NCBI GenBank assembly: GCA_046563655.1
Contig: CM102289.1
Coordinates: 3,162,001-3,226,000 of the forward strand
Source: Yuukianura sp. NJ FZ-2021
Lineage: Eukaryota
DNA: 64,000 bases
Direction: 5' to 3'
Shown here: in pieces, positions 12,903 to 58,726 of the stretch
Numbering within the stretch: position 1 is the first letter of the stretch
How the letters are laid out: the number at the start of each line of letters is the position of its first letter
Translations under genes and position numbers: made by a program
The notes under the pieces: generated by a model
What the model saw: only the letters and a program-made list of their open reading frames with translations
Databases searched by the model: none
What the model was told of the DNA's origin: nothing

Positions 12903-13400
12903 TTAGCGTCTGATTAAAAATATGAAATTATAAAACATGGTATAAACTTTTTTTGAGATTCTTGTGACAATCCATGCACCCGCAACGAAGATCCCAATGA
13001 AAAGGCCAATGACATCTAGTGAATAGTATTCAAAGAAATTGAAATCTCTTGCAGCCGAACGTAGTAGTGGAGCTACGGCATATAAAGAATAAACCAAAAA
13101 AGTTGTAAAACTTCTGCTTGTTCTGTGCCTTTTTCTCAAACATGTTCGGAATACTTGCAACGACCTCGTCTTCATCTTCATCTTCATCAAAATTTCTGTT
13201 ATGTTGGTCACAACTCTCTTGGTAGGTATTGGTGACACGACGGTGACTTCGTGACCTCTAGCTGCCAAAGCTTCTAACAATGGCTCATATGTAATCTTGT
13301 GACTCCGAGCAGAAACGAACGAAAGAGACAAAATCTTTGCTCCGAAAACATTTTCAAAAAGTAGGGAGAAAACGGCGCAAAACAGAAATACTTTAAACAT
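12903..13400 (-). pseudogene. UGT pseudogene with a large internal deletion
   Basis: It starts with a signal peptide plus AKILSLSFVSARSHKITYEPLLEALAARGHEVTVVSP. After a (GATGAA)n slippage near 13170-13190 the UGT-like text (DEVVASIPNMFEKKAQNKQ) continues in a different frame. It then jumps to last-exon sequence (LRSAARDFNFFEYYSLDVIG + TM). The UDP-binding domain is absent. Confidence 0.85.
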
Positions 13401-13846
13401 TTTTAAAAATTTCGAACCTAACTTCACTGTATATTTAAGTAAACAAAAAGTGATGAAAATTTGTCAAGTTCAAAAATTCAATGTTAACTTTTGTAATAAA
13501 AAGTCAGATATCCGTATACAACTTATTTTTATCAAGTTTTTCTTTTTAAAATGATTTTTTGATACTTTTGAGTTTATTGGCTGCCAAAAATCACTTGAAC
13601 CAAAAACGAATTTATGAACTTTTTTTTAGTTTTGGAAGTGGACCAAATCACAATGCATTTAATCACAAGTTGAGTGACCAATTTTGGTTAACTCGTCTAC
13701 CTTTCATATCAGTTTAAACACTTTACACTTCTCTTGTTCTTTGCACGCTGTTTTTTTTTTTCAACAAAACCGAAAAAAAACAGTTAAATTTTTAATCATT
13801 TTTATCATTTCTCTAAACGTTTCGTCAAATTCGCCTCATTGACGAT

Positions 13847-15786
13847 TCAATTTCGTTTTTTAGTTGTTGTTACTTTTGCTTTTGGTCGAGGACAAATACA
13901 ACTCCAAACAAACTGACATGACAGCTTCAATATTTTCGTTACTATCCAAACCACTGTAACCAGCACTGCAAAAATTAAGCCAATCACATCCAAGGAGTGG
14001 TATTGGAAGAAGTTGAGTTCACGGGCAGCAGAACGAAGATGCAGCGCCCCTAGACATAAAAACAAGTTTTTGCGTTAAAGTCCAATTTTATATTAATTTA
14101 CACTGTTGCTAAAATAACTTGGCAAAATTTGACTTCACAAAACTTACCATTGTGTCTTATGACATATTCGACCCAGTATACAGCTCTGTCCAGTGGATGA
14201 TTTGGTTGATCACGGAAAGCGTTAGAAATTGCTGACGATTGAGTTTTGTACCTTAGTTTCAGAAAAAACGTTTAAATGCTGACAATAGGTTTAAATAATA
14301 CAAGTGTTAGAGAAAATATGAGCAACAAATTACTAATAGTACATTGGCAAAATTGTGATTACTTTGATTCAGTCAAAATTTTGTTGATTGCTTCCAAGAG
14401 AGTTTCTTCCGTAAAAGTGTTGAAATCCAAAATGACTCCAAATCCCAAATTGTTTGCTTGACGCATGTTGATTTCTTGGTCAGCGAACATCGGAAGGCCA
14501 ACAATCGGAACACCATGGTACACCGCTTCCGTTGTACTTCCAAATCCACCATGAGTGATAAACGCCCTGCGAAAACCGAAAAGGTCATTGACCTTTACAT
14601 TTTGAAAGCAAAGATCATTGACCTCACTTGATTTTGGGGTGACCCAGAACATCCTGTTGTGGAACCCACTTGCTTAGTTTCACATTTGGCGGCAAATCAT
14701 CCATCTCCTCAGTTTCCCACTTCCAAAGCACTTTCTGCTTCAATTTCGAAAAAACATTGACCAAAACTTTTCTTCTTCCTTCCGGCATTGTGTGTGCTTT
14801 TAGTAAACTTCCCATACTAAACAGAATGAAACCATCATCTCCTGAAGTGGAAACGAAATCTTCTAAATCCTAAAAAGATTTCCAATGTTTTCATAAAATA
14901 GCTATTTACAAATTCGATGTTTATGAAATATGAAATGTTATTACAATGTTAGTAGTACCTTAGGAAGTGGTCCAGCAGAATGACAATGCATTCCACCCAC
15001 TTCCACAATGTCCGGCAGAAATGGACGGATCGTTGCAATGCTAAAATGGCTATTGGACAAAATGAGGCTCGTATTTTTTAAAAGTTCAACAACGCCCGGA
15101 GTGCTTTCTCCGAGTTTCTGTCGGTACGCAGACTCCAAGGCTGGAATCAATATCCAATGTAGGATGACCCTCCAGTAACCTTCAGAAACAAAGTTCACAA
15201 TTCGTTCGTAAAAAGTCATGTGATCAGTAAAACCCGCCATAACATTTGGAACAAACGACGGCGGAGATGGATTTCCATACATTGCTGAAACGGCCGGCGG
15301 TACGCTGAGCGGACTGATTAAAACCACGTTTGTTTTGAATGTTGAAACAAATGCAAGAGCGCATTCGTTCATAATTGCTGGCACCAACACGAGGTCAAAA
15401 TTTTGTGACCTCAGAGCTTGAACGTCTGGTAAATCCAAAGTGTCCAGACAGAGTTTCACTAAATGTGGAACGAGGTCTGTGAAACTCATTTGCTTGTTTT
15501 GTTCCTTGTATTTAAACATGTTTGGCATTCCAGCCGTGACCTGTTCCACATCGAAGGTCAAAATTTCCTTGAGATTTTTCACTGCCTTTTTTGCTGGTAT
15601 CGGAGACACAACGGTGACATTGTGACCCCTGCCTGCAAGAGCCTCAAGCAGGGGATCGTAGGTGATTTTGTGACTTCGGGAAGACATGAACGAAATTGAC
15701 AAAATTTTGGAACCGGACGCATCTTTTGAAATGGAAAAAGTGAGTATGGCACAGGCTACAAGTAAAAACTTCCTTAACGAACACAT
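13847..15786 (-). CDS. UDP-glycosyltransferase (arthropod UGT2-like, ER-anchored), intact, 5 exons: 15786-14959, 14869-14628, 14566-14363, 14251-14148, 14049-13847
   Basis: Signal peptide, SH motif and RGHNVTVVSP. UGT signature [44 protein letters not shown]. C-terminal part has AVYWVEYVIRH, a TM helix and a KKRN ER-retrieval tail. All introns are GT-AG with consistent phase. Confidence 0.95.
14582..14624. promoter_or_regulatory. Paired IR-1 nuclear-receptor-type palindromes in UGT intron 2
   Basis: AGGTCAtTGACCT at 14582-14594 and AGATCAtTGACCT at 14612-14624. Confidence 0.45.
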
Positions 15787-15930
15787 TTCCGTCGTTAGAT
15801 TTTGTACCTTTAATGACTACAACAAAAATTGTACTGATGAGATGAACACTTACGTTTTTAAAACAATCAGTGAAATATTATCACTTTAGCAAACAACCAA
15901 GGAGTTTGGTGAAAAACCTAACGTTTAATA

Positions 15931-16230
15931 CTATTTATCTTTCATATCAATTGAAAACACTTGAAAGATCCTGCTCATGTGGTGCTCTTGTTTGGTGTTT
16001 TTCTTTCCAGTGGAACCAACACGTCTGGGGTTGAACAATATTTCCACATCAAATGTCAAACTTTTCTTGAGATTTTTCACTGCCACTGCCTTTTTGCTGG
16101 TATTGGAGACACAACGGTGACATTGTAACCCTTCCCTGCTAGAGCTCGGGCAGTGTGTCATAGGTGATTTTGTGGCTTCGGGAAGACATAAGCGAAATTG
16201 GTAAAAAGTTTTGAAGCGAAAACATTTTTT
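15931..16230 (-). pseudogene. Degraded 5' fragment of a UGT exon 1
   Basis: Clear nucleotide similarity to 15540-15720 (e.g. gagacacaacggtgacattg, ggtgattttgtg..ttcgggaagacat, KNLKKSLTFDVE), with indels and no downstream exons. Confidence 0.8.
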
Positions 16231-16458
16231 TGAAATGCACAGTGTTGCGAAATGTGTAGAAATGACCCAAAATTAATTAATTATTAAGTGTACAAATATT
16301 AAGTGTATACAAATATAAAGAAATATTAAGAATACAAAATTATATTAAGGCGATTGAAAATCGTAATTTTCCAGGAATTTACAGACCCTACAATGAGTAA
16401 AACATGACAGTGGAGACAAAATCTGTCACTTCTTCTAAGCACTCAAAGAAATTACTAA

Positions 16459-20506: not shown

Positions 20507-23500
20507 CTAAAGTCCCTCGACAAGTATGCCTCTGGGGGCAGTTGACGGAACGGCTCCATGCTTTCGCTCGTTGTGAACTCGAAGTTGGCGTGCAGAGGCA
20601 TACGGTTTATTGCAAGGAACGCATATATGTGGGTATTCAATCACGTGCGAGCGCATGTGTTGTCTGAGCCTCCGTGCAAGTTTGAATGCTTTTCCACAAG
20701 TTTGACATTGAAATGGGGTTTCCGTTCGATGAACCGTAGCGACATGCTCTGCCAGGTCATTTCGAAAACCAGTCTTGTAGTCACACTCTGTACAGCAAAA
20801 TGCTGCCTCGGAGTGCAACTTCCTGTGGGCATTTAAAATCCCTCCTCGCCTAAAACATTTAAAAACGTTCACATCTTTAACCACGGGAGAATATTTTCAA
20901 AAAAAAAGTTTCAGAAAACAAAACTCACGTGAAAAATCTCCCACAAATGTCGCATTTGATGGGTTCAATTCCAAGTTCCTTCCAGTGCTGGCCTCTCTCG
21001 TGGTCTTCCAGTTCGGACCGTAACAAGAAACCGGAAGGACAGCAACCACAGAAAAATTTGTATTCTCCCTGTATGCGAAATAAGGTAACGTTTAGTTTAA
21101 GTTGCAAAAAGTGAAATGACATAAACAACAACCGAAGAATACAAACTCGCCAATTTGAAGCGACATTCTCCCATGACTTAACTCACCGTGTGTCGCCTAA
21201 GGTGAAGTTTGAGGTAGGATTCAATCTTAAACGTTTTCGGACAAAACGAACATAAAAATGTAGCAGGAGCCCCAGAATGACGAATATGAATGTGATTTTT
21301 ATAAGACGATCGACTGGCGAAGACTTTTCCGCAGTGTTCGCACTTGTGATTTCTAATCATCTTTTCCTTGTGTGACTGAACTTGATGATGTCGCAAGGAA
21401 ACGTAAGTATGATATACTCTGAAGCACTTGTCGCAACTGTATTCCGCAACTAAAATCATCAGAATTTTAGTGAGAATTGCAATTACTTGTTACGCTTTTT
21501 GTTCTTCAGTAATGTTTTCTTACCTTTGGGACTGGTCGTTTGTTGCCCAAGCGCACTAGCAGTCTCATTTTTCTCCTGCTCCTCTGCATCTTGAATTTCT
21601 TTATCCACATCTAGTGAATTTTTCGATGAGTCATCCCCAACTTGAACGTCCATGGACGTTTCTTCTGAAGTCGAAAAGTTGACAAACGTATCTCCAATGT
21701 GTAATTGAAGATGCTGCCGCAAGCTGGTACGTGAATTGAAATCTTTCGAGGCACAATTTTCCATAGGACATTTAGCTGGATACGACTCGATGTTGTCCAA
21801 CATTTGTAGCATATTAAAATGCTTTTCATCTGGTCTCCCTGCTTTCTCCTGCACATTATCATAATGAACTGTCTTGATGTGTAGACGAAGGTCATACTCT
21901 CGGCCAAAGTAGGTTTCATCCTCACAACCTTCAATGAAACATTTTGCGGGAAATGTCAGTTCTTGTAAACTTCGATAATGGGCTTGGAGTTCATGAAATA
22001 ATTTGTTCTGCTTGTCAAAGTTGAATAAATTCCGAGACGTTCTGACTTTATAGTGAACATCACGAATATGGCGCTTGTACATTTCCTTGTTTCCGAACGG
22101 TCTTGTAGAACGATAATGGCAAGATTCAGCATAACAGTATGCAGGGTAATCCAAGTAGTGTGCAGCATAAAGTTCACGTCGCATTTCCGCTGGTTGTTCT
22201 TCTTGATGCATTTTCGTGACATGGAGGTGCTGCCGAACGTGTCCTTGAAGAGCGCGAAGGGTATCGTATGTTTCGTTCAACCAACAGTCGTCCAACGGAC
22301 ATTGACTTGGGAGGGTTCGACTGTGCAGTGAAGTCATGACATCAATTTCAACTTGAGTGACATGTCCGGGTGGTTTTTTAGGCGGATTCGGGTCCAGATC
22401 CCAATGCATCCGATTGATGTGGGTGCGGAGATAATCTCGATTTTCAAATGTTCTTGAAGAAAAACAGTTTTCCAGTGGACATTTAGTGGGGTATGATACT
22501 GTGTTGGACTTGTCAAAAAGTGTCATAAGTACCGATGTGCTTCCTCTCTTTTTTTCAGATCGTACTTTTCTCCTCGGTTTTCGTATGGTACAGCGTGCGC
22601 TAGGAACTTTTACAACTCTACGACTGTGAGTGCGACGCTGCTGCCGTTTGACGGTGACAATTCGAATTCCTCGGTCATCACTGTGGCACTGCTCCCTCAC
22701 TCGATGTAATTTCAAGTGACGTCGCAGTAATACATCAGTCCAGAACGTCTCTCCGCACTCGGCATTTACGCACTTGAGGGGAATCACTCTTGGTCCTAAG
22801 CTTACTGTACACGTCTTCAATTTGTAGCCTCCAGTCGCAGGCTTTTTTTCATTAGAATCTTCGACCGTGTGTTTCTGAATCCTTGCACTAGACCGTTTAG
22901 CTTGACGATCACGACTGTGTGTCGCTTCACTAACTAATAGCGATGAGGAGGATGAAGAGGTAGGAACCATAAACTTCTTCGCATTTTCTTCTAGAGGCAG
23001 AGGGGCAAATGTAAATAACGTTTGAAACCCAATTCTTTCTGAGTTTTTTACTTGGAAGAAATTCTCATTCCAATATTCTTACCCTGATTCACTGCAATCG
23101 GATCGGAAAGTGGAAATTGTACATCGTCATCTTCAAACTGAAAAAAATCTTCGTCAGGGAAAGACGAAGGAGCCGGCTCTGGAATTTCATGAGGCGGTCG
23201 TACCCCGTCATCAGCAGTTGTGGCGAGATTAAAAATCAGTCCTATTAAAAATTCATAACATTTGGCACTTCATTGCTTCTGCTTTGAACTGGGAATGAAC
23301 AGTGAACTTCAATAGACCCTTACGTTGAACTAAGTCCGATCTAACTTTGTCGATATAATCCGAACTGCTGCGGTTGGAAATGCTTGCATAGTAGGAGGAA
23401 AGTATCTGTGCCTGGACTTCAACTTGAGCCTGACGAAGAGTGCGTTGTAGTCTATTCAGCGCATCGAATGATTCCTTTGCTCGTAGAACCTGCATCAACG

Positions 23501-24563: not shown

Positions 24564-27500
24564 CTATTTTGTTTCTTTTGCCAGCAATTGTGCTACTGTT
24601 GCTGTTCTAAGTTCTTGAATCGGAATGAAAATTCCAAATCCCTGTTCCATCATTTGCTTAATTTCAACTGTCATTAGAGAATCCATTCCCAGTTGACCCA
24701 AATTGTAGTTCAAATCCATTTTTTTCGAATCTGCAATTCCTAAAATAGATGCCAATGAATCCAGCAAATTTATTTTTCCCGCTTCACCGCCATTTTTCTT
24801 CTTTTGGGCCATGACTACTGAAGATTTGATTCCAACTGGATTTTGAAGTAGAATATCCAATGCATTCAAGACAGATCTAGAAAACAAAAAAAAATATTGA
24901 AAAAAACAAAACAAAACATTATTCCAAAATCAGTTTCAGACAAAAGTTCCGTCAACCTTACCTGATTCTTTGTGGATGCGCAGAAGCGATGACTTTGTCT
25001 TCAGATGAACCCCCCATTTCAGATTCGACGTAACCCACGTCTCCTATTGGTCCAAACTGAAGTGCCAAACCGGGCAATCCTTCTGCAATTCTTTTCTCTA
25101 CAAGTCGTTCTGCCATAGAATTTCCAAATCCATAATTTGTTTGACCTGCATTTCCTCTAGCAGAAGTCACACTTGAAAATACACAAAAGTAGTCCAGGTT
25201 AAGTCCACAAAATTCACGACTCGCTCGGTCCAGGTTAATCGTTCCAAATACTTTTGGAGAAACAGCAGCTTCGAAATCGCTTAAACTCATAGACTCAATA
25301 AACGAATCTCGTAGAACCATTGATAGGTTGAAAATTCCACCAATAGGAGCTCGGAGTTGGTCAGACGCCATTTTGAATGCTTCTCGCAAGCTATCGTAAT
25401 TGGTGACATCAGTTTTTGGACAAAGCACTTCTGCTCCTGCGCGTTTCCAATTGGCACAGTGGTATCGTTGATACGAATTGGTGACTCCAGATCGATTGCA
25501 CAATATGAACTTTCTTCCACCGCGGGAAATCATCCAGGACACAATTTCAATTCCAGTTTCTCCTAAACCGCCTACTAGAATGTAGGCTTTTGATGGATCA
25601 AAGTACGTCCGAGGAACTGCTAGTGTCTGAATTCGGGCTGCGTCGTTGTTTTGACCGCGCATGCGCACAATGACCTTATGTGGAGTCGATTCTTTGGAAA
25701 TCCCGCGCAGAGCCTCCTGTACATCTTCTTTGTTGTAGTAAATGGCTGGAAGTGGTTTGAGAAATCCAGCGAATAGGAATTCCTTAAACTTGAGAGCCAC
25801 GCAAGCAGTTAGTGGATGATTCTGTTGGAGTAATTCTGAAGGTGCGATCTTGTGAACAGAAATGTTGGTTGCAGCTTTCGGAACTTCTGATTCAGTCGTG
25901 AAATCAAGAAATCTGCCGTTGTTTTTCAGCGTTACGGGAAATTTCTTGAGCGCAATTGGTCCCTCCACGTTGAGAATGACATCAGCATGTCTCAGTTTTG
26001 CAGAAGTCATACGTTCATCGTCGTCAAAGAATATATTTTCATTAGCGATCTGCAATTGAAAAAATTAAGTAAACTGCACACTGTATTTTTTTTATAAAAT
26101 AAGCTTTTTCGAAAAATTTTTTGGAATTGTGAATCTTACAAATGGAAATGTTGTTTTCAAGAACTCCCGCTCTTTTAAACTCGGGGAGCAGATCAACACG
26201 GTGCACTTGAGAGCATTGGCTAAATGAATGGCCGCTTGGCCCAATGGTGTGCTTCCGTTCGTCACCAATATCGTTTCACCTTCTCTCAAGTTGCCCCGAA
26301 ATAGAAGTGCATATATTGCCTGTAAGAAAAAATGCAGTTAGAAAACGGAACCCAACATATTTCAAATTCTCTGAATAAGTAAACAACAAGAATTAAATTG
26401 ACGGCAATTTTGAAATGTAAAAATTCTTACCGTAAAGTACGACATAGGCAAAGTGGCGCCATCTTCCAAAGTTATGTTGCCAGGCAACTCAGTGGAGAAT
26501 CCGTTCGGTCCAATCTGCATTGTAGTTCCAAGTGCAGCAGAATCCGCAATTCCGATGATTCGTCGTCCCTCGCTATCAGTTCCAGAAAATTCAATTGCGA
26601 ATTTCCTGGTGGAGTTTTTCAAAACTCCTTGGGAAATTTGATGAGACGCTTCCGTAAGTTCTGCTAAATTCAAGGAAGCAAAATGCGTTTGAACAAATTT
26701 TTCTGTTTCAACTGCATTAGTGTACGGAGTAGCTTGAATCCAATTGAACGATTGTGGATCTCCTTCTGTCACCATGTCCAGATAGCATTCCTCAGTTTCT
26801 TGTAGTCTGAGGGGTGGCAGTTCACGGTGGAGATAGAATCCATGCGTACCGTTGGAATCAACTACGTTATGAACCAATTCCAAACTCAAAATGGCGCTAA
26901 ACTGCTCATTTGAAATGTCGAATTCATCGCGTTGAGAAGAAATATAGCGAACTGAAGTTCCGCCGGGTTCTTTGCGTAAGCACTTCACTAATCCAACAAT
27001 TCCAGTTTCAAAATCTTGAGGTTGTGCAGTTAGTAAAATTTGTACAGTGGGATCCAACGCTGCTTTGGTCATCGCTGCCTTCAAAGTGTCAAACCACTCG
27101 TAAGTCAATGTGTTCACCGGAATTACAACTTTGGAAGCACCAGATTTGTCCTGCTCAATCTGAAACAAAGGTAGATATGCGAAAATTATTTACCAAATAT
27201 CACACTCTCCGTTTATTTTTTGTATTTTGTATGTTGTTGTGAAGTTTTACCTTTCGCATGAGGTACGCCACTTTGTCATTGAATTTCTGAATTGCGACAA
27301 GCTTTAGATCGCTGATCTGAAGCCGTAAAATGTCCCATTTCGTTGTATTTAGCATGATAACGAACGCTTTGTTCGGAATGATTCCTGGAACCAATGGGAG
27401 AAGTTCTGGAGAGTGAATAACAACGACATCAGCAGCAGCGTTCGGCGCAAGCGCTTTGAATTCTTGCAGAAAATTTTCCGATTCGGATTCCTTAATCACA

Positions 27501-40420: not shown

Positions 40421-40495
40421 GTTGGTTAAAAATGTTTCGCTGCAGGATCCTGTACTTGTTTTGTTTAGTAGGCTATTGATAGGGCGGCCGAGTCC

Positions 40496-46755: not shown

Positions 46756-48970
46756 ATTACGTATATATTTATGTCATAGTAATTTTTGGAAAATTGTGCT
46801 AATTAATTATTCCGAAATTAGTTATGCCAAGCTACACCTTTCTTACACAAAAAAAAATCTTTGTCTCTGTCTTCTTCGAAATAATCTGCTGCTGCCTATC
46901 TGCACAAAATTCCCCAACGGTTATAACTTTTGGTGTCTTAAAAGCCGATGGAATGAACGGTAGAACGCAAACCGCAAGGCTAAGCAACAAAATTTTAAGT
47001 TACCAAGTACAGGATTCATAACTTTGAACATTTTGTTCGTAGGAATTGGACAAATTGTTAAATTTAATATTCATTTTTTATTAAGAAAAAGAACTTGATA
47101 ATATTCAACTTTTCCTTAAGATGCTTAAGTAGGTTTTTCAAAAAAAAATATTTCCTGTTCAGGTTTCAATTGATTTATAGTCCCTTCATTTAAAATTTTA
47201 AATGACAATATAGTATGCAATTACGCCATTAAAGTGCGCACATGGAATGTTCAATCTCAGAGATAATTACTAGTTTGACCTTTGACCGGATGGTCTTAAT
47301 AATACTTTTCCAAGTCGTGTTTTCAAGTGGTTACCTCATAAGTTACGACTTGTTTTACAAAGCGAATGGAGTATCACTCTCACAAAATCAGGTAATTTTG
47401 TTTTGAGTTTGGATTTCAATTTTAGAATGTTCAATTTTACATTGATTTTACATGTCCGTCCATGCAAAGTTGGAATAATTTCAAATTCTCAACCTATTTA
47501 GAGCTTCCAATTTATGAGAAGTTGGGGAATTAAATATAATTAAGTAGGATTACCGTTGAATTTTACAATTAAGGGTTAGGTTAGGACGATTTTCGGTTGT
47601 TATAATTTTTAGAATAAAAAGGCAAACGCACGGCGTACTCTGCACGATTTGAAGGCGTTTTTTGCTATAACCTAGAAGAATTCTCACTTCGGAACACTGA
47701 CATTGTCCAAAATGCTGACTAACTTTGAACTGAACAATTTGAGAAAATTTTTAGTCGCTGCTACAAAGTTGAATCTAATTGAAACCGAGTACAACCAAGA
47801 GCTTGATAAAATCATAGTCGTTAAAGCTGGTAGACTGCGTTCTTGTATTGGAACAATTGCGTTAGTTTGTCATTGTGCAAACATGGCTCTTTGTGTGCTT
47901 CGAAGTGCCACGGCGAGTTCTATTACTGTAAAAGCTGTAGCAGCGTTTTTCAGTTTGTCGCTCTTGCCGGCTCTTGGGTATCGCATTCCAATGTTGTTAA
48001 ATACCAACGAAGTTGCTCATCTTGGGAACAACATTTTGGTGATCAATGATGTCTTGAGTAATTTTATAACAAAATCTTTATTTTGTGTTGTAATGACAAT
48101 TTACTAACGTTTTGCGCATACGTTGAATTTTCTTTTTAATATTTGTTGTAGAACGGAAGTTGCAAATTGTAACAGATTCTGCGCGTAAAGCAGAAACTCG
48201 CGGAAGATTGTCGGCAGGCATCACTCTCTTTATGTTGATATGCGTATTTTCTTCGGCATTTCAAATTGTTGCCATCAACTTTGCGCTATTCCCTACTTGG
48301 TGGGCATTTATGATGTACGTTACAGCAATAACGTTTTCCTACGCAGTTTTCCTCTGCGACTTGGCTGTCTTAACGGCAATATTTGTACCGTCCATTTTGA
48401 TAATACGATTTGGGTTACAAAAAGCGTGGTAACCTAATACTAAAAAACACACATAAAAAAAATGCTTTTTTGAATGGTACGGATTTTATGAAGTGGTAAA
48501 ATTTTGTTTTGTATAGCAGCGCTGAAGGACCAAGAAGCTTGGAGGAATCGCAAAATTGCGTTCGCCTTTACCGGTCCATGTAACTTCTGAACCAACTACA
48601 TAACACTGTTTTCGGCACAGCGTTGATCCCTTTGTTTAAAATGGGACTCATTACCTGCATATGTTTGGCTACTTAGGGTCGTATGCTTAATACCAAAGTA
48701 AGCGTAACCTTACCTTGACTCACAGGTCAAAGTAAGGTTTTCATATGTTTAATGCAGTTTTCAAATTACTTTGACCAATGGTTCAACCCGTGGTCAACTC
48801 AACTTTACCCTCGAGTAAAAGTTAGGATTTCATATGTTTAATCGAAAATGTGACACTTGGTAAGCTGAGTGAACCGTAACCCGAGGTCAAAAATCTAACC
48901 CTGGTCAGGGGGTAGGGTTAGCGATCAGTTTTTTCCGAAATTTTAGAAATTTTACTTTTAAAAAAAAATA

Positions 48971-50306
48971 ATGGCTAATGAAACTTCATTTTCTCGCTTA
49001 AGACGACTTTGTAGACGACTCCACCGTCGTCAACTAATCAGAAAAGTACCGTTGATCAGATTGAAGGATCGTGAAAATCCCCTAGAATTTTACAATGGAA
49101 TTGAGTTTAAAAAAAGGTACCATATGTTCAAAGATACTGCTAGCTATGTGATACGTTTAATTGCTCCGGAATTAGTCAGTGAACAAAAAAAAAGGCTGTC
49201 AACTACCTCCAACAATTCAATTTTTGGCCGTCCTACGATTCTACTGTACCGGAAGCTTTCAAAACCTCATCGGAGATTACTCTACTCTGAATCAATCGAC
49301 AGTATCTCGATTGATCAAGCGAGTCTCAAAAGTTATTGCCAAAATGTTGCCAGAATATGTCAAGTTCCCCTCGTTTCCAGAAGCTGCGTCTGTTCGTGAA
49401 CGTTTTTACGAAATTGCTAGTTTTCCTGGTGAGTTACAAGTTTAACATAGTTATTTGTACTGATGTTTGCTATTTTACATGCAAATTAATTTTTTTTAAC
49501 AGGAGTAGTAGGAGCAGTTGACTGCACCCATGTCAAAATAAACAGTCCGGGAGGTGACGATGCTGAACTATTTAGAAACCGGAAGGGACATTTCTCAATT
49601 AACGTTCAAGCAGTTTGTGACGGGGATCTGAATTTCACAAATCTTGTGGCCCGATGGTATGGATCAGCACACGATAGTAGAATCTTTGACAATTGCATCT
49701 TATCGCTAAAATTGGAAAATCAAGAAGTACCCGGAATACTGGTTGGGGATTCTGGTTATGCCTTAACGCAGAATCTCATGACTCCTCTAAAAAATCCAAG
49801 AACGAGACCCGAGTTAAGGTTAGCAAAACAGTTATGTTTAAATTAGGTGTTAAGTTTAAATTTAATTTTTAGGTTTTAAAATTTCTGGTTTAATTTTTAA
49901 ATCCAATTTGTAATTTAAAAATTTTAGGTACCAAAAAGCTCAAATCAAGACCCGAAATTGTATTGAACGGTGTTTTGGAGTATGGAAAAAACGATACCCT
50001 TGTCTGAACCACTTGAGGCTGAAGCTAAACACTTGTCTCGTTGTTATTACTGCTTTAGCAGTTCTACATAACATCTCAAGGTAATTATACATAACTTTTA
50101 AATTACGCTGAACTCATGCTGATTAAATGAACTCATGCTGATCAATGCAATTTCAGCCAATATTTATGAAATCTTTTAGGAAACGAGCCGACATTCATGA
50201 AAATGACTACTTCCAACCGGAAGAAGATGAAGAATTGGATAATGATGAGTTCACAGTTGCTGGGAGGGCTAAACAGCAAACAATCATTAATACTTATTTT
50301 GCCTAA
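48971..50306 (+). CDS. Harbinger DDE transposase (HARBI1-like); exons 48971-49428, 49503-49818, 49928-50080, 50180-50306; frameshift in the A9 run at 49185-49193
   Basis: LRFYCTGSFQ, GAVDCTHV, WYGSAHDSRIF, LVGDSGY, IERCFGVWKKR, VLHN. Confidence 0.9.
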
Positions 50307-50377
50307 ATGAATGAATACTTTGTGTTTTATTTAGAACAACAATCTCAGAAATACCGTAATGTTGTTAGCAATTAAAG

Positions 50378-51538
50378 TTATTTCTCAAGTGCTTTCTGCA
50401 GAATTTTGAGTTCAAGGTCGTGTTTTGCTTCTTCAAATGCCATTTTGTTTCTGTTCGTGTCACGCCGAATTACAGCATCCTCGTATTCTACACGAAGTGT
50501 TTTCAGTCTTAGCTGGTGCTCCTCGTATTCCATGTCGACCAAACTGCTTCTCGGGTCCTTTTCTCTTTTCCGTTTTGTTATAGTTGGTGTTTCTGCAAAC
50601 AGAAAAAAAAACAGGTAGCATTATCCTTTATTCGGTTGTTGAATTCAAAAATACGCTATAACTTAAGTACATACCTCCAATTCTGGTCTTCACTGTCGCT
50701 AACGTACTGACCTGAATATCATTTTGGATAACGGTACCGTCTTCGTCATAAAAAAGTACTTCCTGAGATTCGTTTCCGGTAACGTCTTTAGTTAAAAAAA
50801 AATTTAATCACCAAATTTGAATTCTTCGCTATGATTTAGTTTAGGTTTTTAATTTCTACCTTCGTTCATGCCGCTGACATCGTTTGCAACGTCCATATTA
50901 CTGAGATTGTCTGAAATATTAAATAAGATTTATAATACGGAGTTGGTTAAAAACATACAAAGCAATCGCTGAAGTAAAAATTTACAAATTACCATACACT
51001 CCATCCGAATCTAATTTGTTTTCCAACGATTTCATTTGGCTTGGGACGAGAGACATAATCCGTATAGTTTCTGGTTTCAAGTCCGGTGTTTTCTTTCCAC
51101 CTCCAGTTTTGTAAAGTTTTTTACGATGTGTTGAAACCTATTATTGATGTTAAAAGAAAAATATTATATGCAATGATCTGAATTACACCAATTCCAAAAC
51201 AGTATTTCATATAAGATATCATGCCGTACGTCTTTTTTTGCTCGTTTCTTGGAGTTCAACCACCAGTTCTTCAATTGAGGTGCTGACCGCTTCTGGACAC
51301 CATTGTCACTCGAAAATTTTGAGCTAATTTTTGTCCAGATTTCTTTTTTCTTATTGTTTGTTCCGTAATCTGTTCTTTTGTCCTCAATGATTGCCTTGTG
51401 CTCAGTTACCAGCTCGAGTAGCAGAGTCTTTTCGTATTCCGAAAATGGTTTAGCCTTCGCTACCCATGGACAGCTTCCAACTTCATCTTCCAGCTGGGAA
51501 TGTTCGTTTTCAGAGTCACTACCTAACTGTTGTGCCAT
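50378..51538 (-). CDS. Harbinger Myb/SANT-like DNA-binding protein (multi-exon; internal exons not fully resolved)
   Basis: FSEYEKTLLLELV..KKKEIWTKI..RSAPQLKNWWLN in exon 1 (51538-51230), KTGGG in exon 2 (from 51137), and a coiled-coil-like C-terminus ending ALEK*. Confidence 0.85.
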
Positions 51539-52799
51539 TAGAACTAGTTGTTTAATAATTACGAATTAGCAAATTGAAGGAAAAATTAGAAAAAAGGTAA
51601 TGAGTTCGGTTTTGCAATATTTCCATATTACAATTTTACACACAGCTGCGATTAGTTAGTTGTCACATTTTTTCGCCACTAATGCTCAACTGCATACGTG
51701 AAGGAAAATGTGACAAGTGGAAACTAACCTTCGGTTAACCTGACTTTGACCGTCAGGTTAGCCAGCCTCGGTTCACTTTTTCATTAAAAATATGAAAATA
51801 ACTTTGACCCAGGGGTTAAGGTTAGGTCGTGGTTAGGTGAACCAAGGTCAAACCTTACTTTGACTTTGGCATTAAGCATACGACCCTTACTGTCTCGTGC
51901 GGCTGCACACATCTCTGCATATTATCGTCTACGTTATTTTTGCCTTGTACATTATTTGTATGGTTTTTATCATTTTGCCAGCAGCACTCATTATGTCGAG
52001 TGTATTCAACATTTCGTTCAAATTTCATCGCAACATGGCAGAAGGTATGTCAGGAGCTAAGAGTGGATCCAGACAAATGCAGATGGGGATACGATCAATT
52101 CCAGTTCTTAAATGTACCATCGGTGACTTCTACCACATGGAATCGGTTAGTTAAAGCTTTTGGTGTTCGATACCGATTTGTAGCCAATTATTTGAAACAA
52201 GCGGATTGAATTTTTACAGGAAGCTAAACTAACCCTGCTGGACAGCTTGGCTCGTGGAATTGCATTTTGTCTTTTGTCAACAAAAGATTATTGAACCAAC
52301 GTTTGTTCTGACCAATGGATGCTTTTACACAAACACAAACGTATCACATGTAAACGGGCACGTACCACATCTGAACATGTAGCTTTTAATAGTAGGCTTG
52401 GTATTCGATGTAGCGAGCATAGTTTTAACTGTAATATGTTAGGCTAACCGCTAATTTCAAAGAAGTATTTCTGTTTGCACAGTGTTAATATTAGAAACGC
52501 CACTATTAGAGGAAATTGATTTTTACCATTTCTTTACATTTGCTTTTTGTTCTTTCCATTTGAATAGAAGAAATTTGCTTTTTCTTTTGTTTTTGTTTTT
52601 TTTTTTTTTTTGCAGTTAGTTTTTACTTAAACGATTTTAAGTTGCAGTTGTTTTCTTTTTTTGAAACAAAAAGTACTTTCAGGTCTCGTTTAAAACTTCT
52701 TACAAAGACGATGTAAATAAGTAGCGTCAGACCAATTATAAACAAGCACCGCGCATGCATTGTTGAACCTGACCTCTGATATTATTAGAGGTTAAGGTC

Positions 52800-53085
52800 A
52801 AACAACGGTCGGAATCATAGTCGTCACTCAAAGACGCCGTTCACGCAAACCACTGCATGTCGAATTGGTCCACAGGTTTCCGAAATGTAGAGTAAACTAT
52901 GACCTTCCGCTCTGACCTTGTTAGACGTCACTCGAGGTCATCAAAATGGCATTGCCGCAAACCGTTTCCGAGTCTGTCCATCCGTTTGCGAATTCCACAG
53001 AAAAAGATGACCTTGAGCTTTGACCCTGTTGGAGGTCACTCGAGGTCATCAAATTGGCATTCCCGCAAACCGCTTCAGAGTCTAA
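52800..53085. repeat. ~108-bp tandem repeat rich in TGACC/GGTCA (probable transposon remnant at a duplication junction)
   Basis: ATGACCTT..GTCACTCGAGGTCATCAAA.TGGCATT.CCGCAAACCG at about 52899 and 53007, plus a decayed copy upstream. Confidence 0.7.
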
Positions 53086-53730
53086 TTTTGTGGTAGTAGT
53101 ACCTAATTTTCAGGTACAGAATTCTCAAATTTGAATATTTTGCTTGTAGGAATTGGATACATTGTTAAAATTAATATTCCTTTGCAGAAAAGTAAAATTT
53201 GATAAAATTCAAGTTTTCCTGAAGCTGCTTAAGTAGGTTTCCAAAAAAATTATTCTGTGTTCAGGTTTCAATTGATTTATAGTCTTTTCGTTTAAAATTT
53301 TAAATGAGAAAATAGTACGCAATTATGCCGCTAAAGTACACATGAAAATTTCAAAAACATAGATAATTATTAGTTTGAACCTTGACCGCATGGTCTTAAT
53401 AATACTTTCCCAAGTCAAGTTTAAGTAGTTACCTCATATTCTACTTATTGTCTTACCAGGCTATTGGCATATCACTCTCACAAAATCAGGTAATTTGGCT
53501 TTGAATTTGGATTTCAATGTTAGAATTTTCAAGTTTACCTTAATTTTACATATCCGTCCATGCAAAGTTGGAATAATTTCAAATTCACAACCAAATTAGG
53601 GCTTTAACAATTTTTAAGGTGGAAGCGTTATATTTATCCGACCGTTTTAAACAAAATTTTTGAAGCAAATGTTTTGTGACGTTTCTCCTGACAACCGACT
53701 CAATTTCTTGAAAGTTAAGCATGCTTCACA

Positions 53731-54263
53731 CCAGGTGGTGGCAAAAACGTCCTAGCGACCAAAAACCGATTTTTGAAATGTAAACAAACTCTCGCAGTGA
53801 CGTCATTCCGAGAAAATACAGGTTTATCACAAGGTAAATAGAATACTCCTAGGTAGTGCAAATGGAAAGTTTGTTTGGTTGGCATGTCAAAAAAAATGAC
53901 GTCACCAGCTGAAAAATACCGGAATTCTGCGTATTAATGATGGTGTCCTATAGAAACCCGCAACCCGCATCTTGTTTACATAGATGCCAGGGGGTTAAAA
54001 TATCACGATTACGGTATTTTTTCAGCGGGTGACGTCACAAACAAAAATTGCGTTGGTTGCTATGGGCGCCATTTGCAGGGGGCTGGGTTTATCAAAGTTT
54101 TTAAGGTATTTTTAAGTTAACAGCGAAAGTTTTGAGGCTAAAATGATGAAAATGTTGAACAGCACTGTATATGAGGTATTTGTGATGAAAAAATTCCCAT
54201 AGTAACTAGATTTTGAAAAAAACAATCCTAAACAACCTTACCTCTAGTATTCTATTTACCTTG
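53731..54263. mobile_element. MITE with an 8-bp TSD (P- or hAT-like), nested in another foreign segment (~53615-54545)
   Basis: GCTTCACA direct repeats at 53723-53730 and 54264-54271. Perfect 18-bp inverted repeat CAAGGTAAATAGAATACT at 53830-53847 and 54246-54263. An internal inverted pair lies near 53899 and 54012-54036. Confidence 0.65.
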
Positions 54264-55031
54264 GCTTCACACAAGATTTTATTTCACGTCCGAGTGTAAA
54301 TTACAGCTTCCATATAGCTGCTGCTAATAGAGTGTACCTATGCGATAGCTCGAACTCCCTTGGTCATTTGACCTCCCAGGTCAAAGGTCAAAGTCAAGAT
54401 AAATTTTAAATTGCGCACAAACTGCGCACTAACTGCACAGTTTATCATTTTTGGAATTACCAATTCTTCCAGAAAGTCATTCCCACAAAACCCTACCTTT
54501 CTCAGAAAATTACACTAATTTTATGCCAACAGTATATCCAGGTTGTGATAAAATTCAACGTTTCCTAAAACTACATTAAGTATGTTTTCAAAGGAATGTT
54601 TTGTGTTCAGGTTTCAACTGATTTGTGGTGTTTCCATTTAAAACTTTAAATGACAAAGTGATATGCAATTATGCCATTAAAATGCTCACGAAATAATCAA
54701 CATCACAGATAATTACCGCTTTGAATTTGGATTTCAATTTTCGAATTTTCAATTTCACATTGAGTTTACATGTCCGTTCATGCAAAGTTGAAATAATTTC
54801 AAATTCGCAGCCTATTTAGTGCTTCCAATTTATGAAAAGTTGGGGAATTAAATATAATTAAGTAGGCTTACCGTTGAATTTTACAATTAGGGGTTAGGTG
54901 TTGGACGATTTTCGGTTGTGTTAATTTTTAGAATAAAAAGACAACCGCACTGCTTATTCTGCACAATCTGAAGGCATCTTTTTGCTATAACCTAGAGGAA
55001 TCCTCGCGTCTGAGCATTGACGTTGCCAAAA

Positions 55032-56408
55032 ATGCTCACTAACTTCGAGCTGAACAATTTGAGAAAATTTTTAGCCGCTGCTACTAAGTTTAATCTAATT
55101 GAAATCGAATACAGCCAAGATCTGGATAAGCTTGGAGTTGTTAAATGCGGTAGGCTGCGTTCTTTTATTGGAACAATTGCTTTAGTTTGCCATTGTGCAA
55201 CTATTGCTCTTTGTCTACTCCGAAGTGCCACGGCGAGTTCCGTTACTCTACAAGCTGTAGCAGCGTTCTTCGCTTTGGCGCTATTGTCGGCGGTTGGGTA
55301 TCGCATCCCAATGCTGTTGAATAGCAACGAAGTTGCTCATCTTGGGAACAACATTTTGGTGATCAATGATGTCTTAAGTAATTTTACAAAGGAAACTCTA
55401 TTTAGTGTTGTAATGACACTTTACTTACGTTTTGCACTTGCGTTGATTTTTTTTAATATTTGTTGTAGAACGGAAGTTGCAAATTGTAACTAATCCTGGG
55501 CGTAAAACAGAAACTCGCGGAAGCTTGTCCGCAGGCATCACTCTGTTTATGTTGGTTTCCGCATTTTCTGCGACATTTCAAATTGTTGCCATCAACTTTG
55601 CGCTGTTCCCTAATTGGTGGACACTTATTATGTACGTTACAGCAATATCGTTTGCCACTGCAGTTTTCCTGTGCGACCTGGCTGTCTTAGCAGCAATATT
55701 TGTACCGTCCATTTTGATAAGTAGATTTGGGCTACAAAAAGCGTGGTAAGTTAATATTAAAACACACATACCAAAAAGAAACTACTCACAAAATACTTTT
55801 TCGAATGGTTTGGATGGTATGAGTTGGTAAAATTGTCTTTTGTAAAGCGCGGAAGGACCAAGAAGTTTGGAGGAATCGCAAATTTGCGTTCATCTTTACC
55901 GCTCCATGCAACTCCTAAACCAACTGCATAATACTGTATTCGGCACAGCGTTGATTCCTTTATTTAAAACGGCACTCATTGCCTGCATATGTTTGGCTAC
56001 TTACTGTCTCGTGCGGCTGCGCACATCACTGCACATCATCGTCTACATTATTTTTGCCTTGTATATTTTTTGTATCGTTTGTGTTCTTTTGCCAGTAGCA
56101 CTCATTATGTCGGGTGTATTCAACATTTCGTCCAAATTTCATCGCAACATTGCAGAAAGCATGTCAGGAGCTGAGACTGGATACAGACAAATGCAGATGG
56201 TGCTGCGATCAATTCCAGTTCTAAAATGTACCATCGGCGACTTCTACCACATGGAATCGGTTAGTTCAAGCTTGTGGTGTTGAATAGCGATTTGTAGCCA
56301 ACTATTTTATACAAACGGATTCAATTTTTACAGGAAGCTAAACTAACCCTGTTGGATAGCTTGGCTCGTGGAATTGCATTTTGTCTTTTGTCAACAAAAG
56401 ATTATTGA
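55032..56408 (+). CDS. Gustatory-receptor-like multipass membrane protein, copy 4, apparently intact, 369 aa (exons 55032-55377, 55469-55745, 55848-56259, 56334-56408)
   Basis: Colinear with copy 2 and in frame. The intron 2 acceptor is AAG instead of TAG. Confidence 0.7.
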
Positions 56409-57319
56409 ACCAACGTTTGCTCTGACCAATGGGTACTTATACACAAACACAAACGAATCACACGTAAACGGGCACGTACTAAATCTGCAGATGTAGTTTT
56501 TAATAGTAGATTTGTAATTCAATGTAGTCAGTATAGTTTTAGCCGTAATACGTTAGGTTAACAACTATTTCCAGACCTATGTTCAAAGACGTATTTCCGT
56601 TTGCACAGTGCTAATATTAGAAACACCACTAGTAGAGGAAATTGATTGTTACCATTTCTTTACATTTGTTTTACGTTCTTCCCACGTTTCGAATAGAACA
56701 ATTTTGCCTTTTTTGTTTGTTTTTTTTTTGTGCAGTTAGTTTTTGCTTAAAGGATTTTAAATTGCAGTTATTTTTTTTTTTGAAACAAAAAGTTTAAGGT
56801 CTCGTTTAAAACAAATACTTAAAGTGCGGAAAGGTTTCATGTTATAGTGTTTCAGCATTAATATCCTCTTGCACCGTTTTCACACTTCCGCTTTGAAATG
56901 GAGTTCTCACCCTAGTTTAGCAGAGTTTTTTGACATCCACAATAAATTGCAAACGTCGATTGAAAGTTGTTTCGCTTTTTTTTTCTAAAATAAATTCAGA
57001 GATACACTTGACTAATTTTAGATTTATTCGAATGTATTCTCTAGCAACTTCGTGATATTTTTTTAAGGCATAAAAGACTGATTTCTTAATTAATTTGCTA
57101 AAATCGGGCTTCCGTAAATGTGATAAATTTTGTGGCCGACTTGAAGTTATTTCTCACGTTCTGAAGGGTTCTCAGGCCAAGAGGCTTAGGAAGTCGATGT
57201 CGCTAATTAAGAAAGTTGTGCAAGTCGTCACTCTCAATTTGTCAATTGTTTGAGCTAGGTGCTGCAGTTAAGCCTTAAAAACATTTCAGAACAATTTTGA
57301 AATTTTGAAAACCAAAGCA

Positions 57320-58726
57320 ATGGAAACAATAAGTACAACCACAGTTATTGAACAAGAAAATCAGAATCTCATTTCTCGCACGAAAGCACAAAAACGCCAC
57401 AAAATTCAAAATTCGACGAACGAAGAAATTGAACTGATCGATCGAACTTTTCCCTTAGAAATATTTTGGACGAACGTTGTACTTTGCATAGTACTTCATA
57501 TTTCTGCGGTGTATGGTTTTTACCTTGGACTCACTGGGCATGTCATGTGGCAGACAATGGCTTGGGGTACGTTTTCAAAAAAAAAATTAAGGCTAAATTC
57601 AAAAATTTTGAAAAGTATTTTAAATTCTGCTTTCGCCCTTTTTTAGTTGCTTTGTTGTTCGTTTTCGCGGGGTTTGGCATCACCGCAGGATGTCATCGCT
57701 ATTGGGCCCACAAGTCTTTCAAGGCAAAACTTCCTCTACGCATGCTCCTTGGCGTAATGCAAACGTTTGGTTTTCAATACAGCATTTACGACTGGAGCCG
57801 AACACACCGAATACATCACAAGTACTCGGAGACTAATGCAGATCCACATAACGTCAAACGTGGCTTTTTCTTTGCACAGCTTGGTTGGCTTTTGGTCAAA
57901 GAACACCCAGCAGTGACCCAGAAAAGGAATGAAATGGATTTTAGCGACTTGGAAGCTGATCGTATTGTCATGTTTCAACACAAGTAAACATCTAAGAAAA
58001 AAAGAGCACCAGAAAAAATTCATGCTTCTTGTAAAATTTTTGATTTTTTTTAATTTTAAAATACTTTTTTGATTCACACAGATACTACTGGAGGCTAGTC
58101 GCAGTTTGCGTTCTTTTTATCCCCACGGTGTGTGTTATTGGATGGGGAGAATCTGTGGAATCTGCATGGTACTTTGCCGCTTGTTACAACTTTTGTGTCA
58201 GCATGAACATCACTGGACTTGTCAACAGCGCCGCTCATCTCTGGGGATCCAAACCTTACGACAAGTAAAACATAAATAAAATTTATATATAAGTTATATA
58301 AATATAATTTATATAATGTTTTTCTCAATTATAATTTCGCTTAGGGGGATCAATCCATCGGATAATTTGCTGGTGGCGTTTTTGTCCGGTGGTGAGGGAT
58401 CGCACAATTATCATCACACGTTTCCGTGGGACTACAAAACAGATGAACTGGGGCACTACTATTACAATCCAACGGCAGCATTTTTAGATATCATGGCATG
58501 GATTGGTTGGGCCTATGACCTCAAAACAGTTTCGGAAAATGTCGTAACTGCTCGGGCGAGCCGAACTGGAGACGGATCTCACTCGTCATCTCATGCCCAC
58601 CATGGTGGTGGTCCATGGGGCTGGGAAGACGTAGACATTCCAAAAACAGACGCTGAAGTGACACAGATTTTGCATTCCTGGACTCCAGTAAAAGATGACA
58701 CGAGCCTATCAAAAACAAAATCTTAA
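57320..58726 (+). CDS. Acyl-CoA desaturase (delta-9/SCD-like first desaturase family), 382 aa; exons 57320-57566, 57647-57983, 58082-58264, 58345-58726
   Basis: His boxes HRYWAH, HRIHH and HNYHH; also GITAG, ETNADPHN, VNSAAH, KPYD, FPWDY and GWAYDLK. Splicing is in frame. Confidence 0.95.

Follow-up and report, generated by a model that had tools for sequence, protein, structure and literature searches.

Our analysis points to an ordinary chromosomal neighbourhood of a springtail-like hexapod genome, in which one unusual FAS paralogue has turned into a polyketide-type enzyme and the neighbouring genes are members of large families that lie nearby by chance. We regard this reading of the 64-kb window, that is, of the whole stretch of DNA analysed, as probable, if well short of certain. 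Judging by its motifs, the synthase would act iteratively on malonyl units, carrying out condensation, keto reduction and dehydration but no double-bond reduction, and its product would be a conjugated enoyl or polyene chain, released either by an unlinked hydrolase or, in the manner of EcPKS1, by self-cyclisation to a pyrone. A trans-acting enoyl reductase may supplement it. The neighbours, namely UGT-A and UGT-B, both of the endoplasmic-reticulum type, the UGT fragments, a C2H2 gene and an SCD-type desaturase, would stand beside it by chance and not form one pathway.

A Pfam profile search of 57 ORFs across 12.9-59.7 kb placed FAS/PKS domains in 9 ORFs (ketoacyl-synt N and C, KAsynt_C_assoc, Acyl_transf_1, a weak PS-DH, FAS_pseudo-KR, KR and PP-binding), UDPGT in 6, C2H2 fingers in 3 and FA_desaturase in 1, together with the transposon domains gag/aspartyl protease, RT plus endonuclease, DDE_Tnp_4 and Myb. 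All gene types that a preliminary description had claimed for this locus (megasynthase, UGTs, desaturase and zinc-finger gene) were found by this search and by gene models, and the bounds proposed for a cluster, 12903 and 58726, are ORF ends. The synthase, the zinc-finger gene and the UGT array lie on the minus strand and the desaturase on the plus strand (Table 1). The description also spoke of gene-free flanks. At E<=0.001, Pfam matched none of the 16 ORFs of at least 90 aa that lie in these flanks (1-12.9 kb and 59-64 kb), a coarse test that genes with short exons could escape. No tRNA or Rfam matches were found in the 64-kb window.

Table 1. Features of the window, with the coordinates of their parts.
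Feature	Position	Strand	Parts	Basis
UGT remnant, N-terminal ~60-100 residues joined to C-terminal membrane anchor, middle absent	12966..13391	-		tblastn, Pfam, self-blastn
UGT-A, intact UDP-glycosyltransferase, 5 exons	13847..15786	-	exons 15786-14959, 14869-14628, 14566-14363, 14251-14148, 14049-13847	Pfam, tblastn, alignment
Duplicate of part of UGT-A exon 1	16042..16237	.		self-blastn, 82% identity
UGT-B, tandem paralogue of UGT-A, 76% nucleotide identity	18096..19991	-		tblastn, self-blastn, alignment
C2H2 zinc-finger gene	20507..23078	-		Pfam, regex count
FAS-derived, putatively iterative synthase	24564..34712 (34712-24564)	-		Pfam, tblastn, 14-exon model
Young non-autonomous LTR retroelement in synthase coding exon 4	30353..32984	-	direct repeats holding LTRs 30356-30573 and 32762-32979; internal ORF 30857-32611	repeats, TSD, ORF domains
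Four tandem copies of desaturase 5' unit (5' flank + exon 1)	35708..57526	+	exon-1 pseudo-copy 46428-46721	self-blastn, tblastn
LINE inside array copy 1	36955..40947	-	ORF 37175-40495	Pfam, self-blastn
PIF/Harbinger-like insertion in array copy 3	48675..51886	.	DDE_Tnp_4 ORF 49490-49843 (+); Myb/SANT ORF 51167-51565 (-)	Pfam, self-blastn
Delta-9-type (SCD-like) acyl-CoA desaturase, intact, 4 exons	57320..58726	+	exons 57320-57566, 57647-57983, 58082-58264, 58345-58726	Pfam, tblastn

The synthase carries KS, AT, DH, KR and ACP in FAS order on one polypeptide, as animal type I FAS/PKS enzymes do, and its full order is KS-AT-DH-(short linker)-psiKR-ER(degenerate)-KR-ACP. Pfam detected no psiME/methyltransferase domain in it, and the short linker stands in that place. 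The protein is collinear with FAS by tblastn, and its spliced model has 2049 aa. At 2049-2057 aa it falls ~350-450 residues short of canonical FAS, which has 2392-2513. The KS keeps Cys-His-His, the AT keeps GHSVGE, which is the FAS/malonyl form, the DH keeps HxxxGxxxxP and D..Q, and the catalytic K/S/Y of the KR and the ACP serine are also kept. In the cofactor loop of the KR, the GGLGG[FM][GA] shared by all 12 aligned relatives is replaced by GGLGETG, and because of this change the activity of the KR, and with it the polyene prediction, is uncertain.

The ER is the domain that departs most from FAS. It is 29% identical to parrot FAS and 27% to bumblebee FAS, two enzymes that share 63% in this domain, whereas the KS stands at 55/54% (60% between those two FAS), the AT at 44/46% (54%) and the KR at 44/49% (58%). 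Measured by these identities, the decay of the ER is domain-specific and not evenly spread divergence. Within it NFRD has become NLAE and GSGGVG has become GSTPLG, so that the NADPH-binding glycines are gone, and the EIGKFD and LLD stretches, which we take from the pig FAS structure to be the site of the catalytic Lys and Asp, are absent; the functional ER of a canonical FAS is therefore missing. So is its C-terminal thioesterase, as the stop codon falls 11 codons past the last ACP helix. A tblastn search with six TE-bearing C-termini found no TE-like sequence in the window (best E=0.39 outside the ACP), and none of the three ORFs downstream of the synthase had a Pfam match. By its sequence the synthase would thus belong with the functional AFPKs of the EcPKS1 kind, which combine FAS architecture with an inactive ER and no TE. 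Since the ER is degenerate and the TE absent while the other motifs are intact, an unsaturated or polyene product is predicted, and here the preliminary description, which had proposed such a product from a non-canonical megasynthase, is borne out as far as the KS, AT, DH and ACP motifs can tell.

What could be taken for a 2.9-kb intron of the synthase was rejected as such and is an LTR element with identical 218-nt repeats and a 5-bp target duplication. The direct repeats that hold the LTRs match at 218/218 positions, the ends are TG..CA, a PBS-like tract and a purine tract are present, and the duplicated target is TTAAT; the element has the features of an LTR retrotransposon. Its internal ORF encodes gag, a zinc knuckle and an aspartyl protease only, and as it lacks RT and integrase the element is non-autonomous. 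The complete identity of the LTR-bearing repeats indicates that the insertion is very recent. Reading exon 4 as an empty site gives a frame that is open over 2057 codons and 14 exons with no stop or frameshift, which indicates that constraint on the synthase lasted up to very recent times. The 12 other junctions, the LTR-element junction apart, are GT-AG introns of 68-135 nt. Read-through into the element meets a stop 14 codons beyond the junction, and the interrupted allele would probably yield just a KS fragment. This element, the frameshift in UGT-B and the repeat structure of the spacer between synthase and desaturase are new relative to the preliminary description.

That description had counted 2-4 UGT copies. 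Of these UGT-A alone is intact, UGT-B is apparently frameshifted and the other two are fragments. Folsomia and Allacma UGTs served as tblastn queries for the remnant. UGT-A best matches two Folsomia candida UGTs, at 44% identity; it has a signal-peptide-like N-terminus, the UGT signature and a C-terminal membrane anchor, as expected of a UGT (GT1). UGT-B has the motifs of UGT-A, but its frame apparently shifts by +1 near 19680, within exon 1. The shift would mark a pseudogene or else a fault in the assembly. The UDPGT match of the remnant is limited to profile positions 446-493, and its nucleotide identity to UGT-B exon 1 is 76%. The ORF overlapping the exon 1 duplicate had no Pfam match. The zinc-finger gene has ~7 classical fingers and atypical PxKCPxxxC repeats by regex count; it has no recognisable orthologue, and its Atlas look-alikes were uninformative.

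The desaturase has the His boxes HRYWAH, HRIHH and HNYHH of the delta-9 type. It is 65-67% identical to stearoyl-CoA desaturases, its core exon shares 57-66% identity with SCDs of animals ranging from fish to insects, and its best named matches are from Orchesella (64-65%). Synthase and desaturase are arranged head-to-head, and only ~1 kb of the spacer, ahead of the repeat array, is unique. The 22.5-kb spacer between the two genes consists of the four array copies, which are units of 3.3-4.4 kb diverged to 74-89% identity, and two transposons, one of them a LINE whose ORF is uninterrupted over 1107 aa and encodes endonuclease and reverse transcriptase.

The preliminary description proposed a candidate animal biosynthetic gene cluster. 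On this reading the chain made by the synthase would be further desaturated, the neighbouring UGT(s) would then glycosylate it, and the zinc-finger protein would control the genes locally. The synthase, zinc-finger gene and UGTs do lie close together on one strand, the synthase and desaturase are head-to-head, an ER-dead synthase would give a lipophilic aglycone of the type that UGTs accept, and one insect UGT is known to take a polyketide as its substrate (PMC5719414). The tight packing of four same-strand genes speaks against chance, and co-location of the three families would have a probability of 3e-4 to 1e-3 under a uniform random model, a rough estimate based on Folsomia counts and inferred, not computed on this genome. 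Against a cluster, UGT-B is apparently frameshifted and two UGT copies are fragmentary, the synthase is interrupted by the LTR element in this assembly, and the desaturase works on acyl-CoA and is highly conserved and housekeeping-like. Nor do we know of any animal pathway-specific C2H2 regulator. The UGT, PKS-like and zinc-finger families are also large in springtails, as F. candida has 46-48 UGTs (PMC10087712), 30 type I PKS "clusters" by antiSMASH and a zinc-finger expansion of 123 genes (PMC5490193). The description had itself conceded that proximity would be expected if the UGT and desaturase families were expanded, and by these proxy counts this is partly the case. In F. candida the best-match UGTs and desaturase are on one 4.38-Mb scaffold with accession numbers ~100-170 apart, which weakly suggests that they are non-adjacent. 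We consider a cluster unlikely. That the locus is, or was before the LTR insertion, a native arthropod cluster, in which an independently ER- and TE-less synthase makes a malonate-built polyene that passes to the desaturase and the adjacent UGT, appears decidedly improbable, and the cluster claim overall is speculative, with a low probability.

A two-gene lipid module, with the synthase and desaturase divergent from a shared control region and making a cuticular lipid or pheromone, would leave the UGTs and zinc-finger gene unrelated. Such a module would be consistent with the head-to-head arrangement, with a spacer that is secondary (four desaturase 5'-unit copies plus the LINE and Harbinger-like insertions), with the use of insect FAS paralogues for cuticular hydrocarbon synthesis (PMC10764717) and with the existence of springtail cuticular lipids of fatty-acid-pathway origin (PMC10825826). 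However, the saturated acyl-CoA on which a delta-9 desaturase works does not come from a synthase with a dead ER and no TE, and the original spacing is inferred, as any array copy could be ancestral; we find the module rather unlikely. The synthase could instead be a functionless, dying FAS duplicate in a transposon- and pseudogene-rich stretch, and the loss of ER and TE, the LTR insertion in an exon, the UGT-B frameshift, the UGT and desaturase fragments, the many transposons and the G-to-E change in the KR loop all fit decay. Yet the 2057 codons hold no stop or frameshift across 14 exons once the insertion is set aside, the catalytic motifs of KS, AT, DH, KR and ACP are kept, divergence is concentrated in the ER and the 100% identical LTR-bearing repeats make the insertion very recent. 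We find a decaying locus an improbable account. The chance neighbourhood around one altered FAS paralogue remains the reading we prefer. The locus would then mostly illustrate chance, since tailoring-like genes can be expected to turn up next to a synthase where detoxification families have expanded. If the UGT and desaturase were true partners, they would form a rare animal gene cluster, the first animal-encoded one for a polyketide glycoside, opening a way into the unsolved question of where arthropod glycosylated polyketides come from and giving a model for such pigments and defence compounds.

Whatever the status of the cluster claim, the synthase itself is worth study. Biochemically characterised animal FAS-like polyketide synthases come from molluscs only, while arthropods have thousands of sequences and almost no chemistry, according to PMC10764717. 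A hexapod synthase that combines FAS-like KS and AT with a dead ER and lacks a TE offers a natural test of what minimal changes turn a FAS into a polyene synthase and of whether this conversion arose more than once. Its product could be new, as springtail chemistry is described as poorly known (PMC10825826).

Canonical FASN gives the best overall matches (38-40% over ~2000 residues, KS 54-57%) and has the same domain order, but the synthase differs from it in its degenerate ER, absent TE, shortened psiME region, altered KR loop and shorter length. AFPKs in the sense of Lin et al. 2024 have a KS that groups apart from the FAS clade and has a reduced FAS-HMM score. The KS of the window synthase scored 621 bits in a proxy HMM, not the authors' own, against 558-709 for six named FAS (leave-one-out) and 437 and 463 for two beetle proteins. 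The KS tree grouped it with crinoid and parrot FAS (SH-aLRT 92) in no starred clade, a placement that does not resolve its position, on a branch of 0.64 compared with ~0.3 for canonical FAS. EcPKS1 of the sea slug Elysia chlorotica has no TE and an ER without NADPH-binding residues, so that polyenes are formed, and lies outside any gene cluster according to its authors (PMC7280274). EcPKS1 and EcPKS2 share with the window synthase the FAS-type domain order, the missing C-terminal TE, the defective ER and an intron-bearing animal gene. However, the AT of EcPKS1 is GHSMGE, and the synthase is nearer to FAS by sequence, with its ER-KR exon scoring 214/208/200 bits against fly/pig/human FAS and 172/149 against EcPKS1/2, and its KS-C exon 238 bits against FAS and 201/188 against EcPKS1/2; for this reason its losses of ER and TE are probably independent of theirs. 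The arthropod AFPKs (ar-clades 1-4 of Lin et al. 2024) are FAS paralogues proposed to make specialised lipids, and they generally keep the TE (PMC10764717) that the window synthase lacks. In two beetle "fatty acid synthase-like" proteins, one of 2026 aa from Diabrotica and one of 1825 aa from Asbolus, the chain likewise stops past the ACP and the glycine motifs of the ER are degenerate. For the UGTs the closest parallel is DcUGT2 of Dactylopius coccus, a membrane-bound arthropod enzyme that glycosylates a polyketide aglycone to give carminic acid (PMC5719414); the abstract of that report mentions no genomic linkage between UGT and synthase, and the linkage in the window is physical only.

The preliminary description had listed a FAS-like synthase, UGTs, a zinc-finger gene and a desaturase in this window, and Pfam searches together with gene models confirmed and refined that list. 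Among the 57 ORFs searched between 12.9 and 59.7 kb, UDPGT was found in six, FAS/PKS domains in nine, C2H2 fingers in three and FA_desaturase in one, along with transposon domains (gag/aspartyl protease, endonuclease plus reverse transcriptase, DDE_Tnp_4 and Myb/SANT). The window is eukaryotic, with a G+C content of 33-44%, and its introns are short and of the GT-AG type.

Features of the window, with coordinates on the forward strand
Feature	Coordinates	Strand	Description
UGT remnant	13391-12966	-	N-terminus fused to anchor
UGT-A	15786-13847	-	intact, 5 exons; signal-like N-terminus, UGT signature, membrane anchor
UGT remnant	16042-16237
UGT-B	19991-18096	-	tandem paralogue of UGT-A, 76% identical
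Zinc-finger gene	23078-20507	-	~7 classical C2H2 fingers plus atypical repeats
Synthase	ATG 34712 to stop 24566-24564	-	14 exons; modelled by tblastn with FAS relatives and splice-site enumeration
KR cofactor loop of synthase	25590-25570 region	-	model residues ~1743-1749; from alignment
LTR element	30353-32984	-	inside coding exon 4 (KS-AT linker); sole long "intron" of the synthase
LINE	insertion 36955-40947; ORF2 37175-40495	-	1107 aa, no stop; endonuclease and reverse transcriptase; breaks the array
Desaturase pseudo-exon	46428-46721
Harbinger-like element	48675-51886		breaks the array in copy 3
Desaturase	57320-58726	+	4 exons; all 3 His boxes

The synthase has the domain order KS, AT, DH, short linker, psiKR, ER, KR, ACP, and at 12 of its junctions lie introns of 68-135 nt with GT-AG ends. 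No methyltransferase or psiME remnant was matched by Pfam in the ORF at 27203-27574. The stop codon lies 11 codons past the ACP helix, and a tblastn search of the whole window with six TE-bearing C-termini, at E up to 10, returned only noise (best E=0.39); none of the three ORFs downstream of the gene has a Pfam match. The synthase lacks a TE.

An alignment with 12 relatives was used to check the catalytic motifs. The KS retains its Cys and both His, the AT retains GHSVGE and FAFHS, the DH retains HVIDGRNICP and FLDSLLQ, the KR retains Lys, Ser and Tyr, and the ACP retains the DSL serine. In the ER, NFRD is replaced by NLAE and GSGGVG by GSTPLG, and the EIGKFD and LLD stretches, which carry the catalytic Lys and Asp, are absent. 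Because the ER is only 29% identical to that of the parrot FAS and 27% to that of the bumblebee FAS (63% between those two), while the KS (55% and 54%, compared with 60%), AT (44% and 46%, compared with 54%) and KR (44% and 49%, compared with 58%) fall less far short of the identity between the two FASs, the decay is specific to the ER. At the KR cofactor loop the synthase has GGLGETG in place of the GGLGG[FM][GA] of all 12 FAS-like relatives, and this Gly-to-Glu change could alter NADPH binding.

The synthase is newly broken in this assembly by an LTR element. Two direct repeats of 218 nt (30356-30573 and 32762-32979) are 100% identical, the element ends in TG..CA, a TGGCG primer-binding-like site lies past the 5' LTR and a purine tract ahead of the 3' LTR, and a TTAAT target duplication flanks the whole (32984-32980 and 30357-30353). 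Pfam matches in its internal ORF of 585 aa are weak and limited to gag, zinc knuckle and aspartyl protease; neither RT nor integrase was detected. The element is non-autonomous and very young, the insertion being very recent because the LTRs are identical. Read-through from exon 4 into the element gives ...GYAVLNCSVSALFSAYLNFP and then a stop, whereas removal of the element and one TTAAT copy restores ...GYAVLNGSRLEAKQIE, followed by an intron of 222 nt that starts with a GTTAGT donor, and the whole frame is then open across 2057 codons. The interval 32973-30101 was considered as a 2873-nt intron with a weak GTTTCG donor and rejected, given the LTRs and target duplication; cryptic splicing of the same interval would stay in frame and may be a conceivable rescue route. 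The LTR also contains an AATAAA-bearing palindrome oriented as the host synthase gene.

The two tandem UGT genes differ in their condition. The frame of UGT-B exon 1 changes near 19680 (19660-19700), the original frame meeting a stop near 19678, at a place where UGT-A is continuous; UGT-B is either a pseudogene or the product of an assembly error. A mini-intron of 52 nt or ~36 nt that would rescue this exon was rejected, as its splice signals are poor, its phase is wrong and conserved residues would be lost. With the N-terminal exon as query, the best UGT matches come from Folsomia candida (two proteins, both 44% identical, at 239 and 228 bits), followed by a UGT of the springtail Allacma at 34% and insect proteins at 30-35%. 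An Atlas search with the zinc-finger protein returned only generic C2H2 look-alikes, none of them informative.

The core exon of the desaturase is 57-66% identical to stearoyl-CoA desaturases of fish, molluscs and insects, with the best named matches (64-65%) in the springtail Orchesella cincta, and the gene looks like a conserved SCD-type enzyme. Going by the best matches of the UGT and the desaturase, the DNA would come from a springtail or something closely related. The spacer between synthase and desaturase (35.7-57.5 kb; 35708-57526) is an array in which a unit of 3.3-4.4 kb, comprising the 5' flank and first exon of the desaturase, occurs four times in tandem at 74-89% identity. This diverged 3-4 kb array is visible only by self-blastn, and Tandem Repeats Finder reported nothing at a score of at least 100. 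Each copy contains an ORF of 140-200 aa without a Pfam match (for example 36429-37028, 44021-44521, 47676-48104 and 55014-55490). The LINE that interrupts the array is possibly still active, and the ORFs at 40499-41224 beside its ORF2 may be its ORF1. In array copy 3, a DDE_Tnp_4 ORF (49490-49843, plus strand) and a Myb/SANT ORF (51167-51565, minus strand) form the two-gene layout of PIF/Harbinger elements. Only ~1 kb of unique DNA separates the synthase ATG from the first array copy; since the spacer is made of array copies and two insertions, the synthase and the desaturase are head-to-head neighbours.

Octocoral terpene clusters are animal precedents for gene clusters, and the preliminary description had proposed that the synthase, UGTs, desaturase and zinc-finger regulator form one biosynthetic cluster. 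Whether such a neighbourhood would arise by chance was estimated from proxy numbers of F. candida rather than from this genome, at a density of ~1 gene per 7.7 kb. F. candida has 46-48 UGTs (PMC10087712), and its 221.7-Mb genome holds 36 antiSMASH clusters, 30 of the 36 being type I PKS, and a zinc-finger expansion of 123 genes (PMC5490193). On these figures, a UGT locus would fall among the five nearest genes of a given synthase with a chance of roughly 0.3-0.8%, and with ~30 synthase-like loci at least one synthase-UGT adjacency would be expected in roughly 10-20% of genomes. A triple with one specific further family would be rare (roughly 3e-4 to 1e-3 per genome). Any two "tailoring-like" families would have drawn the same flag, however, and the scan spans very many windows; if such families make up ~4% of genes, the rough estimate rises to ~1.6% per synthase and tens of percent per genome.

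A lead for macro-linkage comes from F. candida, where the best-match UGTs (XP_021960380.1 and XP_021960451.1) and desaturase (XP_021960553.1) lie on the same 4,384,456-bp scaffold, with UGT and desaturase accession numbers ~100-170 apart; this is not proof of adjacency. One member of the F. candida UGT cluster is named "UNC93-like protein MFSD11" at source and is probably a fused or mis-named model. Taken together, we consider a biosynthetic cluster at this locus improbable as a hypothesis. A partial version, in which only the synthase and the desaturase belong together, is slightly easier to credit and still unlikely. In the parts of the literature available to us on arthropod FAS-like enzymes, springtail polyketides and animal BGCs, no springtail FAS-like synthase beside UGT genes is described.

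Protein searches, including a profile-free scan of 1.84 billion representatives at E<=0.001, found no close relative of the synthase. Among the best 150 of 27,522 matches, full-length FAS-like proteins reach ~40% identity and a few short fragments 44-49%; the ER-KR exon is at most 39-40% identical to 19 matched proteins of 645-2000 aa, and when the whole protein is compared, its identity to the FAS of bumblebee, parrot, crinoid, tick and mite is 37-40%. A metagenome scan with the ER-KR exon gave 65 pattern matches, none of which tblastn confirmed, and no related locus. Horizontal transfer was rejected, as the gene has 13 spliceosomal-type introns and its best matches are animal FASs. A rapid KS tree with 27 rows places the synthase only tentatively, on a long branch: it joins crinoid plus parrot FAS (SH-aLRT 92, at a node that is not starred), with an end branch of 0.64 compared with ~0.3 for canonical FAS. 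With a FAS-KS HMM built from six named FASs as our own proxy for the published test, the synthase scores 621 bits, the six FASs 558-709 (leave-one-out) and two TE-less beetle proteins 437 and 463.

In a comparison with proteins of solved structure, the ER-KR exon reaches 214, 208 and 200 bits with fly, pig and human FAS and 172 and 149 with the mollusc (Elysia chlorotica) FAS-like PKSs EcPKS1 and EcPKS2; for the KS-C exon the scores are 238 for FAS and 201 and 188 for the two PKSs. EcPKS1 is described in PMC7280274 as without a TE and with an ER without NADPH residues, hence its polyenes. The synthase shares both hallmarks, yet its AT has the FAS-type GHSVGE rather than the GHSMGE of EcPKS1, and it appears not to be a member of the mollusc clade. 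Arthropod AFPKs, according to section 10 of Lin et al. (PMC10764717), generally retain a TE; springtails figure in the available part of that paper only for a horizontally acquired PKS. Insects, too, have TE-less, ER-dead FAS relatives: one "fatty acid synthase-like" protein each from the beetles Diabrotica and Asbolus stops right after the ACP, and the glycine motifs of its ER are degenerate. The synthase is a real and noteworthy variant that combines a FAS-like KS and AT with EcPKS1-like losses, and it probably represents an independent FAS-to-PKS transition.
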